A stretch of DNA of 64,000 nucleotides from Candidatus Saccharimonadales bacterium (GTDB lineage: Bacteria; Patescibacteriota; Saccharimonadia; Saccharimonadales; 2-12-FULL-41-12), in contig JAYRJB010000008.1 in the NCBI GenBank assembly GCA_041906505.1, positions 72,053 to 136,052 of the forward strand. The letters are read 5' to 3'. Position 1 is the stretch's first letter, and each line of letters starts with the position of its first letter. The position numbers and the translations under genes are program-made. Positions 4,788 to 46,224 of the stretch are shown here, one piece after another. The notes under the pieces are model-generated. The model saw nothing but the letters and a program-made list of their open reading frames with translations. It was not told the DNA's origin and ran no database searches.

Positions 4788-4807
4788 CACCAAAACAAGT
4801 GTGAATA

Positions 4808-4833
4808 AAAGCCCCAGAAAACGGGGCTTTTAT
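4808..4833 (+). terminator. Rho-independent terminator after tuf
   Basis: AAAGCCCC / GGGGCTTT 8-bp stem, 7-nt loop, then a T-run. Confidence 0.75.
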
Positions 4834-7927: not shown

Positions 7928-8565
7928 TGGCCACCCCTACCTTTACAAAATCTGGAGCGAAGTCGACTAGTTCCGTGAAGCTTGACAAGAATGTGTTTGA
8001 AGTTGAGGTTGCGAACCACCGCTTGCTCAAGGACGCCTATCATGCATACCTTGATAATGGGCGGCACAATCTTGCGGTCACAAAAACACGTGGTCTGGTT
8101 CGTGGTGGCGGGAAAAAACCCTGGAAGCAAAAAGGCACAGGCCGGGCTCGATTCGGAAGCTCAAGAGTTCCCATTTGGAGAGGCGGAGGAATTACTTTTG
8201 GTCCTACGGGAAACGAGAACTACTCTAAGAAGTTAAATCAAAAAGCCAAACGTACAGCTATACGACAGGCACTGACACTGGCGGCGCAGGCCAATAAGCT
8301 GTGCATTATTGAGGCTTTTGAAGTCCAGGATGGCAAGGTTAAGTCTGCCCTAGAATTGCTGAACAAAATTAATGCCAAGGGTCGCGTATTAATCGTTGTC
8401 GAGAACAAATCCGAAGAGATGAAGCGAGCAACAAACAACCTCGAAGCAACTATACTTGTTCAAGCGAAGTATCTCAACACATTTGACATACTCAACGCCG
8501 ATACTATCGTGGTGACAAAAAATTCGCTCAACATCATTTCTGATTGGCTTGGAGGTGAAAAATAA
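7927..8565 (+). CDS. rplD: 50S ribosomal protein L4
   Basis: 212 aa. Motif GGGKKPWKQKGTGRAR. ATG overlaps the rplC stop. Confidence 0.96.
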   Translation: MATPTFTKSGAKSTSSVKLDKNVFEVEVANHRLLKDAYHAYLDNGRHNLAVTKTRGLVRGGGKKPWKQKGTGRARFGSSRVPIWRGGGITFGPTGNENYSKKLNQKAKRTAIRQALTLAAQANKLCIIEAFEVQDGKVKSALELLNKINAKGRVLIVVENKSEEMKRATNNLEATILVQAKYLNTFDILNADTIVVTKNSLNIISDWLGGEK

Positions 8566-41147: not shown

Positions 41148-41855
41148 TTGACGGTTTACAGTAACACGCAGATTCGACAGGCGTTAAACAATCAACACAT
41201 CGTCATCCATCCATATGTTGAAGAACATGTGGCTGGTAGTAGTGTCGACGTCACGCTCGGCCATTATTACTATCGAACAGAAAGACCAAGTGAAGGTGGT
41301 TTTTATAATCCATTTGACGAAAAAGCTGTTGAACAGTACTTTTCTGGTGCTATGAAGGCTGAAATTCACAATAAATGGGCCAAAACCCACGGCAGGGTTC
41401 CTTTTAAGAACATCCCTCTGTCCCAGCCAATTATTGTGCTAAGACCTCACGAGCGAATCCTGGCCCATACACACGAATTTATCGGTATTCGAGCTCCAGG
41501 AACGACCACAATGCAAGCTCGAAGCACTTGGGGAAGAAACGGGATTTCGGTTTGTCTCGACGCGGGCTGGGGTGATCCAGGCTATATCAATCGCTGGACA
41601 ATGGAAATCTACAATATGAACCAGCACGAAAGTGTTGTCTTGCCGGTTGGCGAACGAATCGCCCAGCTTGTTTTTTACGAGACCGGACCAGTCGAAGCTG
41701 AGTATAAGAGTTTAAGCGGAAAATATCAGTCGGACAAAAGTGCTGATTTGGATACGATTATCGCGAATTGGAACCCAGAGCAAATGCTTCCTAAAGCCTA
41801 CAAGGATGTTCGTCGTAAGCCACTGAAAGTCGAGGGTCTATCGGACTATGATTGA
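41148..41855 (+). CDS. dcd: dCTP deaminase family protein (possibly bifunctional dCTP deaminase/dUTPase)
   Basis: 235 aa, TTG start. Dcd-like blocks SSVDVTLG, ARSTWGRNGISV, AGWGDPGY..RWTMEIYN and GERIAQLVF. Confidence 0.8.
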   Translation: MTVYSNTQIRQALNNQHIVIHPYVEEHVAGSSVDVTLGHYYYRTERPSEGGFYNPFDEKAVEQYFSGAMKAEIHNKWAKTHGRVPFKNIPLSQPIIVLRPHERILAHTHEFIGIRAPGTTTMQARSTWGRNGISVCLDAGWGDPGYINRWTMEIYNMNQHESVVLPVGERIAQLVFYETGPVEAEYKSLSGKYQSDKSADLDTIIANWNPEQMLPKAYKDVRRKPLKVEGLSDYD

Positions 41856-41894
41856 ACCTCTCTATTCCATAGATTATGGGGTGGGGGGAGTGTC

Positions 41895-44213
41895 ATGACG
41901 CAAAGAGGAATATTTATTGTGCTTGAAGGGACCGACGGATCCGGCAAAGGCACGCAATTCAACCTTTTAGCCCACAAACTTGCCTTAGAGGGTTACGATG
42001 TAGTAACCTTCGACTTTCCTCAGTATGACCAAGAGTCAAGCTATTTTGTAAAGCAGTATTTGAACGGCAAGTATGGCACATCTGAAGAAGTCGGGCCGTA
42101 CACTGGTTCATTATTTTATGCACTTGATAGGTACCAGGCAGCTCCCAAAATCAAAGAAGCTCTCCAAGCAGGGAAAATTGTTTTAGCCAATCGATTTACC
42201 GGCTCGAACATGGCGCATCAAGGTACTAAATTTGATCACGTCGAGGAGCGAAAAGGCTATTTCTTGTGGCTGGATGCAATTGAATTTCGGACTTTGAACA
42301 TACCAAGGCCAGATCTTTCTCTGGTACTTAGAGTACCCGCCGAAATTGCCCAAAGGTTAGTTGATAAGAAGGCAGCCCGAGGTTACACGGATAAAAAAAG
42401 GGATCTACATGAGATGGATCTTGAGCATATGAAAAAGTCGGTTGAAGTATATGACAGCTTATGTCAGCTATTTCCAAAAGACTTTAAGCAACTTGACTGT
42501 GTGCGCAACAATCAACTTCTCGACATTGAAACAATACATAATATTATTTGGGAGACAATAATGCCGTTACTACCAAGCAAATCGTCCAAAACTACTAAGC
42601 TCACAGACGCTCATAATTCTGCAATTTCACAGAATCAATTGATAAAGAAAATTGATGATCGCTACGCAATAACTGAGGCGGGCGAAGAAGCCCTAAAGTC
42701 GGTTGTTACAAACACGAAGAGTGATGTGTACGGCTTCTATGACAGTATTAGTCCTATTACGATCGCTGCAGCTATGGCCAGACTTAGCCGCCGTGGCGAC
42801 GACATGAGGATAACCTTACTTGACGAATTTCTGGGCGCAGCAGGAAAAGATGAGCAGCTACTCAAAAGAGTCATTACTGCGTATGGCGATGATTCTGTCC
42901 AGCAACTCGCCGGACAGCATGTGGTCGTAGAGGGAGCAAGCAACCTGCTTACGAAGAAGCTCGAGTGGGGACGATTGGCGGCATATCTCGAACAGTCAAC
43001 CCGCTACATATATTTTGACCAGAAGGACGCCGCTGGCCGCTACAAGTACTTTATTCCGACAACCTTAGACCAAGAGACGAAAGCGCTGTACATAAAAACA
43101 AACGATAAAATCTTTGATCTATACTCGAGTATGGTGCATGATTTAACAGCTTATGTTCGTAACACTTCTTCGGTACCAAAAGCCGAGCAAGATGTTGCTT
43201 GGAATGGTGCTACTAGAGCTCAAGCCTGTGATGCGGTACGTCCGGTTTTGCCGGTCGCGACCAAGTCAACAGTTGGAATATTCGCATCTGGACAAGCCCT
43301 TGAAAGCCTTATCATGCACCTACTATCAGACGAATTAGTTGAGGCGAACGAAACAGGAAAGAAGATTTTAGCCGAAACTCGAAAAACCGTTCCAATGTTC
43401 CTTGAAAGAGCTGATAAGCCAGATAGAGGTGGTGCGATGGTTGCCTACCGCGCGGAAACAGCAAAGCAAGTAGCCAATTTTGCGAATAAACATGTTCCCG
43501 ATACCTATAGCACGGCGTACGAGGCCGTTACCCTCACGAATGTCTGGCCAAGAAATGAGATGGACCTAGTTCCCAATATGCTCTACGAATACAGTTCTCA
43601 TTCTCTCCAAGAGCTAGAAGCTGAAGTTTCAAAATGGCCATACGAAAGAAAGCTTGAAGCCTTCAACTCATATATGGGTGAGCGTCTAAATCGAAGACAG
43701 CGTCCAGGTCGAGCAATCGAAAACGCTCACTACAGCTGGGACATCGTGTGCGATTACGGTATATTTCGGGACCTGCAGCGTCATAGAATGGTTGACGATA
43801 TGGCTTGGCAACAGCTTACCCCACGCTATGGTTATGAGGTTCCAGCGTTAGTTGAAGAGGCTGGTTTGACAGAAAAGTTTGAAACTTGCTTTGACCTAAG
43901 TCTGAAACTGTACAGTGTGTTGCAAGCAGGGGGCTACGGGTACGAGGCGCAATACGCCACGCTACTTGGGCACAGAATGCGCTGGAAAATGACATTTAAT
44001 GCTCGCGAGGCATTCCACTTTATTGAGCTACGCACGACCCCACAAGGACATCCTGGCTACAGGTTGTTGACGCAAAAAATTTATGAAAAGCTCAAGGAAG
44101 CACATCCTCTCATTGCTGGCGCAATGAAGTTTGTAAATCAAGGTGAGGACCCAGAGCTGGCGCGTTTGGCAGCAGAGCGCTACACGCAGTTTAAGCTAAA
44201 GAACTTGCAGTAG
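41895..44213 (+). CDS. tmk-thyX: fusion protein: N-terminal thymidylate kinase plus a C-terminal double-length ThyX-like flavin-dependent thymidylate synthase region
   Basis: 772 aa. Residues 1-~215 carry IVLEGTDGSGKGTQ (P-loop) and LDRY (Tmk). Residues ~270-772 carry ThyX-like blocks SPITIAAAMARLSRRG, FRDLQRHRM and NAREAFHFIELRTTPQGHPGYR. Confidence 0.7.
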   Translation: MTQRGIFIVLEGTDGSGKGTQFNLLAHKLALEGYDVVTFDFPQYDQESSYFVKQYLNGKYGTSEEVGPYTGSLFYALDRYQAAPKIKEALQAGKIVLANRFTGSNMAHQGTKFDHVEERKGYFLWLDAIEFRTLNIPRPDLSLVLRVPAEIAQRLVDKKAARGYTDKKRDLHEMDLEHMKKSVEVYDSLCQLFPKDFKQLDCVRNNQLLDIETIHNIIWETIMPLLPSKSSKTTKLTDAHNSAISQNQLIKKIDDRYAITEAGEEALKSVVTNTKSDVYGFYDSISPITIAAAMARLSRRGDDMRITLLDEFLGAAGKDEQLLKRVITAYGDDSVQQLAGQHVVVEGASNLLTKKLEWGRLAAYLEQSTRYIYFDQKDAAGRYKYFIPTTLDQETKALYIKTNDKIFDLYSSMVHDLTAYVRNTSSVPKAEQDVAWNGATRAQACDAVRPVLPVATKSTVGIFASGQALESLIMHLLSDELVEANETGKKILAETRKTVPMFLERADKPDRGGAMVAYRAETAKQVANFANKHVPDTYSTAYEAVTLTNVWPRNEMDLVPNMLYEYSSHSLQELEAEVSKWPYERKLEAFNSYMGERLNRRQRPGRAIENAHYSWDIVCDYGIFRDLQRHRMVDDMAWQQLTPRYGYEVPALVEEAGLTEKFETCFDLSLKLYSVLQAGGYGYEAQYATLLGHRMRWKMTFNAREAFHFIELRTTPQGHPGYRLLTQKIYEKLKEAHPLIAGAMKFVNQGEDPELARLAAERYTQFKLKNLQ

Positions 44214-44751
44214 CTGTAACGCCTGGTAAAATCATTGCCCGATTTGTCGCAACAACAGACTCGTTATCTTGCATGGCTACGATGTGTGACTTTTGGCTTG
44301 CTTCTTGGAGAGCGTAATCAATTTCTTGTAGTCGATCTTGTTCAACAACGCCCAGATTTGTACTAAGCCGTGCATCGACAAGCATAAGCTCAAGGGCACT
44401 CGCACCCAAATTCTTTACTGTCGCTTGCGTACAATCTGTTGACTTAATTGATTTTCTTAGCTCAAGGCTACCAATTACACCCAAACCGTACTCTCGAAAG
44501 ACTAGCCCCGCAATAGTGTGCAGAATGAACCGTCCCCGCACGTCGTCCTGTTGTAAGTGGATCTGATGGCGCTGAAAGCCGTTTTCAAATGCAGCTTTCA
44601 CTTGAGGTATATATAACTCATTGATACGAGCTGTTCGGTCTGGATTTCTTTCCATAATTGACTTGAGAGACTCAGAGTCCCGGTCTCTGTCAATTACTTG
44701 CCAACCACATTTGGCAGTCAATTTTGCTTGTTTGATAAGGTCATACATCAC
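44191..44751 (-). CDS. hypothetical 186-aa protein
   Basis: GTG at 44751 or ATG at 44748. Its 3' end overlaps the tmk-thyX 3' end by 23 nt in convergent orientation. No family recognised. Confidence 0.5.
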   Translation of the reverse strand: MMYDLIKQAKLTAKCGWQVIDRDRDSESLKSIMERNPDRTARINELYIPQVKAAFENGFQRHQIHLQQDDVRGRFILHTIAGLVFREYGLGVIGSLELRKSIKSTDCTQATVKNLGASALELMLVDARLSTNLGVVEQDRLQEIDYALQEASQKSHIVAMQDNESVVATNRAMILPGVTATASSLA

Positions 44752-44760
44752 ATATCTCTT

Positions 44761-44798
44761 AAAAAATAATACTCCAAACCCTTTGACGGCATCTGGAG
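44761..44798 (-). terminator. candidate intrinsic terminator/attenuator inside the minus-strand 5' leader
   Basis: Minus strand: GCTCCAGA-13 nt-TTTGGAGT stem followed by ATTATTTTTT. It ends about 10 nt before the start codon. Confidence 0.4.
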
Positions 44799-44928
44799 CT
44801 TCACTTTTTAGCCTTTACCTAGCAAAACTCCTCTGATCGCTAACTTCGGCACTTCACCATGCACACAATAGAGATATCTACGCGGGATGGCTTAGCCAAA
44901 TACGAAATAGGAGTTTTCACAATATGCG

Positions 44929-44956
44929 ATTATATACTGATTATTTTTTGTGTCAA
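44929..44956 (-). promoter_or_regulatory. near-consensus leftward promoter
   Basis: Minus strand: TTGACA (44956-44951), 16-nt spacer, TATAAT (44934-44929). About 170 nt of leader precede the 44751 ORF. Confidence 0.6.
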
Positions 44957-44979
44957 TATATGTGATTTGCAAAAAAATA

Positions 44980-45008
44980 TTGACACACGTCGAGTGCAGT
45001 GGCAATAT
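44980..45008 (+). promoter_or_regulatory. candidate rightward promoter
   Basis: TTGACA (44980-44985), 17-nt spacer, CAATAT (45003-45008). Its -35 box is the right arm of an 11-bp inverted repeat shared with the leftward promoter. Confidence 0.5.
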
Positions 45009-45096
45009 TGTGTCTGTGAACAGCGTAATTTCACTCGCACTGATTCTGCTCGACAGACCGAGCGGGTGATTTGTTGTTGTGCATTATCGCGACAAG

Positions 45097-45121
45097 CTCC
45101 CGCAACTAAGCGGGAGTTTTT
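45097..45121 (+). terminator. intrinsic terminator/attenuator in the rightward 5' leader
   Basis: CTCCCGC-aactaa-GCGGGAG followed by TTTTT. It lies 26 nt upstream of the ATG at 45148. An upstream GCGGGTG (45062-45068) could pair with the 5' half as an antiterminator. Confidence 0.65.
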
Positions 45122-45147
45122 AATTGTATGAGAAGGAGTGAGTAAAA

Positions 45148-45492
45148 ATGAAAGAAAAATCACCAGAGCAAATGCTGCGCGAAACCCGTGCGCTTGCGAC
45201 AAAAGTTGAGAATGACAGATTGGGCAAAACTATAATCCAGTCATTTACAAATGGTGAGATACGGCAAGTCTCGAACTACGGGGAGGGAGCTCAACAGAAT
45301 TCAGCTGTAATCCGTGAACCTTTTACAGCCGGAGAACCGACAGCAGGCCTTGAGCCTACACAAGAGCCAGACGAGACTATTGATAAAGGTAATTCTGTGC
45401 AAGAGGTAGTCGTAAGGGTTGGTGAAACATCACTAAATATTTCTGGGGTTTTCTCTCCAGATAGATACGCGATACTTGCGCCGTTAGAGTAG
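45148..45492 (+). CDS. hypothetical 114-aa protein
   Basis: AAGGAG RBS 9 nt upstream of the ATG. No family recognised. Confidence 0.55.
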   Translation: MKEKSPEQMLRETRALATKVENDRLGKTIIQSFTNGEIRQVSNYGEGAQQNSAVIREPFTAGEPTAGLEPTQEPDETIDKGNSVQEVVVRVGETSLNISGVFSPDRYAILAPLE

Positions 45493-45521
45493 TTGCTCTG
45501 ATTGCCATATTCTGCTAAAAT
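45493..45521 (+). promoter_or_regulatory. candidate promoter of the rplJL operon
   Basis: TTGCTC (45493-45498), 17-nt spacer, TAAAAT (45516-45521). Confidence 0.55.
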
Positions 45522-45612
45522 ATGTCGTTAGTTACCGAAGACAGTAGCGTCTCGAGACAATTGAGATTAAGAATGCTACCGAGGAGTAAATATTTAGCAG
45601 CACGCTTATATT

Positions 45613-45641
45613 AGTCTTTGGTTTCATCCAGAGGCTTTTTT
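45613..45641 (+). terminator. intrinsic terminator within the rplJ leader (attenuator candidate)
   Basis: AGTCTTTGG-tttcat-CCAGAGGCT is a 9-bp stem (two G-U pairs) followed by TTTTTT. It lies 55 nt before the rplJ ATG. Confidence 0.5.
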
Positions 45642-45696
45642 ATGGTCGATACATCGCTTCTGGAATCAATGTAACACATGTAATGAAGGTCAAAAT

Positions 45697-46224
45697 ATGG
45701 CTTTAACAAAAGTAAAAAAACAAGAGGTTGTGGGCGAAGTCGGTGCGTTGTTATCGACGTCGAAATTAACAGTTGTTGCGGAGTATCAAGGCACCAGCGT
45801 GAAAGCCATGCAAGGCCTAAGAGCATCTGCTAAAGAGCAGGATACGATAGTCAAAGTTGTTAAGAATAGGCTCGTAAAGCAAGCTCTTGCAACTAATGAT
45901 GTCTTTAAGGACGCTGATACCTCAGCGTTGTCTGGTCAGTTACTCTACGTGTTCAATGCACATGATGAAGTGGCGCCAGCGCAAGTACTCGCCTCGTTTG
46001 CAAAGACCAACCCCAATATCAAGTTTGTGGGTGCGTACTCTACTGACGGGTCATTTATGTCAGCTGAAGACGTAACAATGCTTGCAAATCTACCAAGCAA
46101 AGATCAGCTACGTGCGCAGCTAGTTGGTACTATCGCCGCTCCACTGAGTGGGTTTATCAACGTAATGAGCGGTAATGTGCGCGGTGTATTAAATGTCTTA
46201 AATGCTCGAGCAGAAAGTTTATAA
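45697..46224 (+). CDS. rplJ: 50S ribosomal protein L10
   Basis: 175 aa. Typical L10 organisation. Directly precedes rplL. Confidence 0.93.

Follow-up and report, generated by a model that had tools for sequence, protein, structure and literature searches.

Two divergent leaders between thyX and rplJ of a Saccharimonadales bacterium as probable leader-peptide transcription attenuators

The gap between orf186 and orf114

The stretch of DNA analysed here, in the following called the window, comprises 64,000 nucleotides (nt) of Candidatus Saccharimonadales bacterium (assembly GCA_041906505.1, contig JAYRJB010000008.1, positions 72,053 to 136,052 of the forward strand). Its genes around the region of interest are arranged in the order rplA, dcd, tmk-thyX, orf186 (minus strand), a gap of 396 nt (positions 44,752 to 45,147), orf114, the L10 leader, rplJ, and rplL, so that the gap is bordered by the two divergent genes orf186 and orf114. 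An earlier note on this DNA had described two divergent promoters within the gap and, behind each of them, a leader of about 105-170 nt with an intrinsic terminator at its end, and this description is supported by our analysis. The note had interpreted the leaders as aptamers with expression platforms. We propose here that both leaders are probably ribosome-mediated leader-peptide transcription attenuators, with the translating ribosome as the most likely sensor instead of a ligand-binding RNA, and our confidence in this interpretation is higher for the rightward than for the leftward leader. The coordinates of all features are given in Table 1.

Table 1. Features of the gap and its borders, in window positions. 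Short open reading frames (ORFs), promoters, and terminators are predictions.
Feature	Position	Strand	Description
orf186	44191-44751	-	Coding gene that the left attenuator would control; nearly without known relatives
Left intrinsic terminator	44761-44799	-	Stem GCUCCAGA...UUUGGAGU (44799-44771), then U-run AUUAUUUUUU (44770-44761)
Left region 3	44795-44804	-	GUGAAGCUCC; overlaps the 5' arm of the terminator
Left antiterminator (2:3)	44831-44822 with 44804-44795	-	GGAGUUUUGC with GUGAAGCUCC; 10 base pairs (bp), three of them G-U; -13.2 kcal/mol
Left region 2	44822-44832	-	AGGAGUUUUGC; partner of region 1 or region 3
Left long-range helix (1:2)	44824-44832 with 44909-44917	-	9 bp
Left short ORF	44840-44920	-	GTG 44920-44918; 26 codons, peptide MKTPISYLAKPSRVDISIVCMVKCRS; stop UAG 44842-44840
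Left region 1	44909-44917	-	AAAACUCCU, codons 2-4; with region 2 it makes the closing helix of the long hairpin (anti-antiterminator)
Leftward promoter	44929-44956	-	TTGACA-16-TATAAT, 12/12 consensus
Palindrome	44949-44987		TGTGTCAATAT (44949-44959), 17 nt, ATATTGACACA (44977-44987); perfect 11-bp inverted repeat
-35 hexamers	44951-44956; 44980-44985	-; +	Inside the palindrome arms
Rightward promoter	44980-45008	+	TTGACA-17-CAATAT; weak -10 box
Right short ORF	45016-45069	+	GTG 45016; 17 codons, peptide MNSVISLALILLDRPSG; stop TGA 45067-45069
Right region 1	45032-45052	+	CACUCGC (45032-45038) or CUGCUCG (45046-45052) sequesters region 2
Right region 2	45059-45068	+	CGAGCGGGUG; GCGGGUG at 45062-45068; overlaps the stop codon
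Right apical hairpin	45074-45095	+	UUGUUGU/GCGACAA; tip of the antiterminator, separating region 2 from region 3
Right intrinsic terminator	45097-45121	+	CUCCCGC, region 3 (45097-45103), AACUAA, GCGGGAG, region 4 (45110-45116), UUUUU
orf114	45148-45492	+	Gene downstream of the right attenuator; strong ribosome-binding site GAAGGAG; few relatives
L10_leader (RF00557)	45517-45650	+	56.5 bits (gathering score 44); immediately precedes rplJ

What the sequences themselves show is the geometry of the promoters, the ORFs with their pairings, and the conservation and covariation of these elements in relatives. The palindrome in the middle of the gap is present as described before and gives a TTGACA to each strand. 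The leftward promoter could be confirmed as a full match to the consensus, and it is the only exact TTGACA-N16-18-TATAAT in the 64 kb, where 0.02 such matches would be expected. In two sister species it is identical in 35 of 36 nt (97%). The gap is shared by three sister species in total, represented by L001-L011, L091, and the window itself (L-numbers denote related loci). The spacing of the rightward promoter was likewise found as noted earlier; the promoter scan reads the same promoter as TTGACA, 18 nt, AATATT, with 10 of 12 consensus positions. Its -35 box is conserved among the sister species, and its spacer and -10 box are variable.

Perfect inverted repeats of at least 11 bp with a spacer of at most 30 nt are found twice in the window, compared to a mean of 0.58 in shuffled sequences. 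The other such repeat (4805-4833; ATAAAAGCCCC, 7 nt, GGGGCTTTTAT) lies between A and T runs and resembles an intrinsic terminator that would act in both directions.

The leftward and the rightward leader

In the leftward leader the GTG is placed 8 nt past the TATAAT box and in the rightward leader 7 nt past CAATAT, and from this geometry we infer that in both leaders the start codon lies at the transcription start. The frame opened by the left GTG is free of indels in all loci in which it was followed, with 24 codons in L011, 26 in L091, 22 in L092, 26 in L012, 24 in L075, and 25 in L027. Both the frame and the hairpin are kept in the three sister species, in which 5 of the 52 predicted pairs show compensatory changes. 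Both are also retained in L092 upstream of the remote orf186 homologue, where the frame encodes the peptide MKTSNIWHNSVTSMALKRFVIC and the four regions can still be recognised. The window's peptide contains two Cys codons, which are not consecutive, and each of the sister versions has at least two Cys, a residue that makes up about 0.5% of the amino acids in the proteins of the genome. The long-range helix and the stem with its U-run, ending 10 nt before the start codon of orf186, are as stated in the earlier note. The terminator hairpin alone reaches -13.1 kcal/mol (RNAfold), and it was missed by the consensus scan because of its loop of 13 nt. The alternative pairing with the 5' arm of the terminator is longer than had been noted before and is backed by the covariation in the leftward family (see below).

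Between 44760 and 44810 an A-run upstream and a U-run downstream turn the DNA of the left terminator also into a weaker plus-strand terminator, and the same dual-strand reading is possible in L012 and many relatives. It might also stop transcription that leaves tmk-thyX and runs through orf186.

The right short ORF is identical in 54 of 54 nt in L091 and in 51 of 54 nt in L011, with variable bases just upstream of it, and its frame is kept in L092 and L012 as well. Compared to the window, the region before the start of orf114 is 55-59% identical in the sister species and the right short ORF 94-100%. Because the genes of the same species differ at about 40% of their third codon positions, the conserved blocks are under selection. 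Leu, Ile, and Val together make up seven of the 16 residues that follow the initiator. The span of region 1 covers the codons Ser-Leu-Ala-Leu-Ile-Leu-Leu (codons 6-12), and a C-to-U change within it in L011 retains the pair as G-U. The near-duplicate AGCGGGTGATTT/AGCGGGAGTTTT (GCGGGTG/GCGGGAG), through which the upstream copy could capture the 5' half of the CTCCCGC/GCGGGAG terminator, is present as the earlier note had described. The stem of the apical hairpin is rebuilt in another register in L011 and L091. The terminator hairpin has -13.0 kcal/mol, lies 27 nt past the stop codon, and is conserved in 23-24 of 25 nt (92-96%); the terminator scan places it at 45094-45119, with the U-run following.

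Two other starts of the right ORF were considered and rejected. A longer ORF of 39 codons from GTG 44950 would depend on a weak TTCACA promoter, and the equivalent frame in L011 is stopped at 10 codons. A start at GTG 45010 (ATG in L011) would be only 1 nt past the -10 box, and the bases that separate 45010 from 45016 vary (TCT, CAT) whereas the sequence from 45016 on is invariant.

The same architecture in related genomes

In about 80 further Saccharimonadales genomes, from which the related loci were taken, the interval between thyX and rplJ is a variable island of 0.2-4.3 kb. It usually consists of a minus-strand ORF, a gap of about 300-450 nt, and plus-strand ORFs. The island ORFs are mostly non-homologous between genomes, yet the gaps share one architecture, in which an ATG or GTG 7-8 nt past the -10 box opens an ORF of 14-32 codons that is followed by an intrinsic terminator, and the ribosome-binding site and the next gene are found 18-30 nt past this terminator. 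A scan for units built from a promoter, a leaderless ORF of 10-45 codons, and a terminator identified 69 units in the thyX-rplJ islands, four in 4.4 times more flanking DNA, and two in shuffled islands; the unit density in the islands is 77 times that of the flanking DNA. Applied to the whole window, the same scan finds only the left and the right leader of the gap. In addition, 120 promoter-plus-terminator pairs from related islands were picked irrespective of start codons, and in these the frequency of ATG/GTG peaks at 7-8 nt past the -10 box with 15-20%, compared to about 2-3% at other offsets. The units are better conserved than the genes downstream of them. At the DNA level, similarity searches (blastn, nhmmer) with the intergenic region against 90 loci detected only the sister species and a weak match in L012.

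The leader peptides can be grouped into four families. Family A comprises leftward leaders (e.g. ...IAKHICRPYGFVLVMAK); the lengths of the leftward ORFs in the relatives cluster at 23-32 codons, and their start codon is mostly GUG. Family B consists of rightward, Leu-rich peptides (e.g. ...LKQLLLLGLxGLCFSMVEA), family C of rightward peptides of 14-20 residues rich in Ile, Leu, and Val (e.g. MSLTSIIIKIIETRHQRD, MTKQSMVSLIIVKPHPRA), and the peptides of family D end with SKELG. Divergence at codon positions 3, 1, and 2 is 0.52, 0.44, and 0.35 in family A and 0.42, 0.34, and 0.26 in family B, and both families show synonymous codon variation. Scans of the leader peptides against Pfam and NCBIfam gave no match. 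The terminator of family C (CCCCGC...GCGGGG) is found 24-28 nt past the stop codon, and by peptide composition, distance between stop codon and terminator, and terminator sequence the rightward leader of the window belongs with this family. Both leader types of the window recur in L092, beside the sole remote orf186 homologue.

The families differ in the amino acids they favour, Ile being enriched 2.6-fold in families C and D and Leu 2.8-fold in family B. A leader of family C is located directly upstream of the gene for the biosynthetic threonine dehydratase IlvA (PALP and Thr_dehydrat_C domains) in L065, another one at the head of an ilvA operon in L049, and by eye one precedes ilvA in both L050 and L051. 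Leaders of family B precede an HMGL-like gene (LeuA/CimA-type) in L026 and L040, and leaders of family D an M20 peptidase. The pairing of an Ile-rich leader with ilvA and of a Leu-rich leader with a LeuA-like gene in the relatives is the classical logic of amino-acid attenuators.

Inspection by eye of family B leaders on the plus strand (L013 at about 8000-8150, L020, L035, L047, and L090) revealed five successive segments of the UGAAGC/GCUUCA type. From these, four hairpins that exclude one another could arise in series, beyond the usual three.

Covariation and folding of the alternative pairings

In the leftward family, region 2, located just past the stop codon, is complementary to region 1 as well as to region 3, and region 3 in turn to region 4. 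All three pairings (1:2, 2:3, and 3:4) covary between genomes. The duplex statistics are family-level values, with the window's own units included in the tested sets. For 35 leftward units the 1:2 duplex has a native mean of -20.8 kcal/mol compared to -14.2 kcal/mol for cross-genome combinations (p ~1e-4). The corresponding values for the 2:3 duplex are -15.9 and -10.9 kcal/mol in the leftward units and -8.95 and -7.08 kcal/mol in the rightward units (permutation p ~1e-4 in each case). Covariation was also counted in an unfitted MAFFT alignment of 20 leftward leaders, from which the window's left leader was excluded because it was misaligned. In this alignment the antiterminator is paired to 84% and shows 12 double changes compared to 4.1 in shuffles (0/500), and the terminator is paired to 88% with 15 double changes compared to 5.8 (0/500). 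Controls with slid registers collapse for antiterminator and terminator alike. A single alignment column of region 3 shows covariation with its partner in either structure (GC:11/AU:8 and CG:9/UA:7). Because both 2:3 and 3:4 covary, the choice between terminator and antiterminator is most probably itself under selection.

The folding of the window's leaders was analysed with transcripts cut before region 4 and with ribosome-sized masks. When no ribosome is present, 1:2 forms and region 3 is free. With a ribosome within the short ORF the antiterminator forms, and once the ribosome stands on the stop codon this pairing disappears in the right leader and is weakened in the left one. The folds thereby reproduce the three states that the attenuation model predicts.

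Proposed mechanism and alternative explanations

According to the proposed model two back-to-back promoters of the sigma-70 type would each produce a leaderless transcript starting at the GUG of the first codon, and each transcript would encode a short leader peptide followed by a four-segment attenuator. If the short ORF were not translated, regions 1 and 2 would pair, the 3:4 terminator would form, and transcription would halt before the gene. A ribosome reaching the stop codon would cover region 2, fully in the right and partly in the left leader, and the terminator would form again. Only a ribosome stalled within the short ORF would hold region 1, so that the 2:3 antiterminator could form and transcription would read through into orf114 or orf186. 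In the rightward leader the stall signal is likely a shortage of charged Leu, Ile, or Val tRNA because of the high share of these residues in the peptide.

Several points weigh against this interpretation. The transcription starts, the translation of the short ORFs, the termination, and the identity of the signal are predicted from the sequence, and leaderless initiation at GUG is not known from Saccharibacteria. The genes that would be controlled in the window, orf114 and orf186, are orphans without a link to amino-acid metabolism. That a downstream gene belongs to the pathway of the sensed amino acid is customary but not mechanistically required. In full-length equilibrium folds the terminator always wins, and the attenuation model therefore depends on co-transcriptional kinetics; such an outcome at equilibrium is expected for a kinetic switch. 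In the right leader the -10 box CAATAT is weak. The right short ORF does not show any synonymous variation among the three sister species and a codon-position signature was not found in family C, so that selection on the coding sequence is not directly demonstrable for the right ORF. In the left leader the peptide is devoid of a run of any single amino acid, and the stop codon is located 8 nt before region 2, so that a ribosome-sized mask still leaves a partial antiterminator of 8 bp. Furthermore, the peptides of families A and B (e.g. KHICRPYGFVLVMAK) are strongly conserved without being repetitive, which exceeds what a simple codon-run sensor would need.

Alternatively, the units could be complete genes of their own, encoding hydrophobic micro-proteins or dual-function RNAs, with the downstream ORFs expressed only through leaky termination and the pairings being incidental. 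The conservation of the family A and B peptides beyond codon runs, their coding signature, and the better conservation of the units compared to the downstream genes fit this explanation, and in Sinorhizobium released attenuator RNAs and leader peptides are known to act in trans (PMC6614838, PMC7298713). However, it is hard to reconcile with the covariation of region 3 with both region 2 and region 4, and with downstream ORFs that start 18-30 nt past the terminator and have good ribosome-binding sites but no room for a promoter of their own. In addition, the rightward peptides, with 14-20 residues and interspersed charged residues, are too short to span a membrane. Independent small genes are thus unlikely. 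Still less can be said for metabolite-binding riboswitches, in which leader aptamers would bind a small ligand such as a nucleotide and thereby select between terminator and antiterminator. Both leaders indeed fold better than shuffled sequences (z = -4.9 for the left and z = -3.0 for the right leader), both have terminator/antiterminator alternatives, and the right leader is almost invariant in its nucleotides among the sister species. Of the aptamer-plus-expression-platform layout suggested by the earlier note, the conditional terminator with its alternative pairing is supported and the aptamer is not. Rfam 15 has no match at E<=10 between 44500 and 45400, and none that attains its gathering score in the 12 related loci scanned. 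The interior of the left hairpin, the would-be aptamer core, is only 70-78% identical among the three sister species, while the frame of 24-26 codons stays open without indels. Start codons at the predicted start in dozens of relatives, the coding signature in families A and B, the grouping of the leaders by peptide family across the relatives, the Ile-rich and Leu-rich peptides before ilvA and the LeuA-like gene, and downstream genes that are non-homologous between genomes are not what would be expected from an aptamer either, and we consider a riboswitch highly improbable.

Equally improbable in our opinion is that an RNA-binding protein or an uncharged tRNA (in the style of TRAP, PyrR, or the T-box) selects the pairing instead of the ribosome. 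Protein-mediated attenuators use the same 1:2, 2:3, and 3:4 architecture, and the nearby L10 leader belongs to a family that in B. subtilis is autoregulated by L10(L12)4 via transcription attenuation (PMC4538822). In contrast, no match to the T-box (RF00230) or any other Rfam family was obtained for the two leaders, repeats of a binding site are not evident, and such a factor would leave unexplained why the start codon is found at the transcription start, why the ORF lengths are so tight, why the stop codon is located at region 2, and why the Ile and Leu enrichment corresponds to ilvA and the LeuA-like gene. A dimeric repressor or activator bound to both arms of the palindrome and co-regulating both promoters, as had been considered in the earlier note, would be compatible with attenuation. 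A perfect 11-bp inverted repeat is indeed rarely expected by chance, and this one reaches 5 bp beyond the -35 hexamers. However, the spacing of the divergent -35 boxes, 23 nt in the window, is 22 nt in L011 and L091, 10 nt in L092, 7 nt in L075, about 50 nt in L012, and about 70 nt in L027, the outermost bases of the arms are already changed in L011, and the half-site does not recur elsewhere in the window above chance. Because of the variable spacing and the non-recurring half-site an operator of fixed geometry is unlikely, and a regulator gene was not found nearby in the gene annotation of the window and by Pfam. The operator thus remains unsupported and unlikely, and the palindrome most likely just results from two divergent -35 boxes with their shared context. 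Further candidates for the left hairpin, namely the signal recognition particle RNA, 6S RNA, an integron attC site, and a type I toxin, were rejected because no model matches and the sequence pattern is ORF-like.

In paired leaders of families A and B the divergent promoters share an overlapping -35 site, CTTGTCAAG, which reads TTGACA on one strand and TTGTCA on the other. This overlap was seen in L013, L020 (about 8015-8030), L035, L047, L063, L090, and others.

Attenuation by a translating ribosome could also take a more specialised form in the leftward family. Given that its peptides are conserved and non-repetitive, and that the window's MKTPISYLAKPSRVDISIVCMVKCRS contains two rare Cys, they might sense something other than bulk amino-acid supply. 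It is conceivable, if rather doubtful, that they are nascent-chain arrest sensors or dual-function micro-proteins, with cysteine, a host-derived molecule, or translation stress as the cue, and that the paired attenuators act as a sensor of host dependence and are not a remnant of the control of amino-acid biosynthesis. In this way an obligate epibiont would turn on rapidly evolving orphans that are located in a hypervariable island next to its ribosomal-protein genes.

Neighbouring genes

Both orf186 and orf114 are real coding genes, because the differences to the closest other species concentrate at third codon positions (80 of 123 in orf186, compared to L001, and 50 of 87 in orf114) and indels are absent. 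Pfam searches did not reveal any match for either of them. In protein searches orf186 has only a genus-level homologue, P0002, and the remote P0007, and orf114 has genus-level relatives and otherwise only weak similarity to a 111-aa ORF at the same position in L075. Scanning metagenomes with the orf186 alignment did not find a further contig, and the AlphaFold2 model of orf186, based on an alignment of three sequences, is too poor for a fold search (pLDDT 37.6). P0007 shares 30% identity with orf186 and is encoded at 130-496 in L092, behind similar paired attenuators. Leader and gene have therefore not been separated even between such distant relatives. Orf186 and tmk-thyX converge, and their 3' ends overlap by 23 nt (44191-44213). 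An unrelated minus-strand ORF in L012 overlaps thyX by 23 nt as well, and the position of the orf186 stop codon appears to be dictated by the conserved C-terminus of ThyX.

The tmk-thyX gene encodes a fusion protein of 772 aa, whose best protein matches are in metagenome-assembled genomes of Saccharibacteria. Together with the dCTP deaminase gene dcd, this thymidylate kinase-ThyX fusion is inserted between rplA and rplJ (41148-44213, plus strand), an arrangement that, including the fusion, is kept across about 80 Saccharimonadales genomes. The earlier note had pointed to these thymidylate genes when proposing nucleotide ligands. However, dcd and tmk-thyX are transcribed separately and from upstream toward the region, and orf186 converges on them, so that we do not see a link. 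The L10 leader upstream of rplJ is present in all 12 related loci scanned. Within the gap ARAGORN did not find any tRNA or tmRNA.

In the window the interval from thyX to rplJ covers 44213-45697. The thyX-rplJ islands contain ilvA in eight loci, an HMGL-like (LeuA/CimA-type) gene in four, and about seven ORFs for M20 peptidases in six loci, two of them in L069. This gene content stands out in a lineage that is regarded as limited in biosynthesis.

Comparison with known attenuators

The overall logic of the 1:2, 2:3, and 3:4 pairings is that of the enterobacterial trp, leu, ilvGMEDA, thr, his, and pheA attenuators, which also have the stop codon beside region 2 and the terminator just ahead of the first gene. 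The composition of the right peptide MNSVISLALILLDRPSG resembles that of the Leu/Ile/Val-rich ilvG and leu leader peptides. Unlike the predicted leaderless ORFs of the window, the enterobacterial leader ORFs are preceded by a Shine-Dalgarno sequence. The amino-acid operon leaders of Rfam (Leu, Thr, His, Trp, Phe) do not match the window even at E<=10. The best match to such a leader in the related loci, Phe_leader in L065, is not significant with 16.2 bits compared to a gathering score of 55 (E = 8.8), and otherwise Rfam detected only tRNAs and the L10 leader in the window and the related loci, at gathering thresholds as well as at E<=10.

Closer in design are leaderless leader peptides, of which 14 have been predicted in Deinococcus deserti (PMC4007540) and which are known as IlvL from the ilvBNC attenuator of Corynebacterium glutamicum (PMC11857589). 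In these systems, as at the predicted transcription starts here, the start codon of the leader peptide coincides with the transcription start, three alternative hairpins can form of which the first overlaps the 5' end of the short ORF, and branched-chain-rich peptides are found upstream of ilv or leu genes, as in the relatives of the window. They differ from the present leaders in that the latter belong to Saccharibacteria (Patescibacteria), are arranged as two back-to-back attenuators with a shared promoter region, start mostly with GUG (in the leftward units), and in the window would control orphan small proteins and not biosynthetic enzymes. In scans of Rfam, Pfam, and NCBIfam sequence similarity between these leaders and those of the window was not found. 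A further likeness exists to the leaderless polycysteine short ORFs of the Cys 'ribulon' in mycobacteria (bioRxiv 10.1101/834739), where a leaderless AUG/GUG ORF also comes first and the amino-acid supply is sensed by ribosome pausing. The left peptide and its sister versions resemble them in containing at least two residues of the rare Cys. However, the mycobacterial elements work at the translational level by unmasking a ribosome-binding site, whereas the output in the window would be an intrinsic terminator, and the Cys codons are non-consecutive. With transcription-terminating riboswitches the leaders share the expression platform, in which an upstream segment is able to capture the terminator's 5' arm; unlike in riboswitches, a conserved ligand-binding core and an Rfam match are missing and the region of the sensor is an open reading frame.

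Conclusions

The proposed mechanism is textbook knowledge, and its novelty is the phylum, for which such regulation was not found in the literature searched: a full-text search did not return any report of attenuators, attenuation leader peptides, or native riboswitches in Saccharibacteria or the Candidate Phyla Radiation. To our knowledge, almost nothing is known about gene regulation in the Patescibacteria (Candidate Phyla Radiation) in general. If the interpretation is correct, Saccharibacteria would regulate genes through leaderless translation and the coupling of transcription and translation, and there would be several leader-peptide families whose conservation exceeds that of the genes under their control. 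The gap between thyX and rplJ would be a hypervariable, attenuator-controlled island, which harbours ilvA or LeuA-like genes in some lineages and orphans in others, including the window. The leaders could also serve as compact native regulatory parts for genetic tools, and in cultivated TM7 strains they would provide a testable handle on how an amino-acid-dependent epibiont senses its supply.

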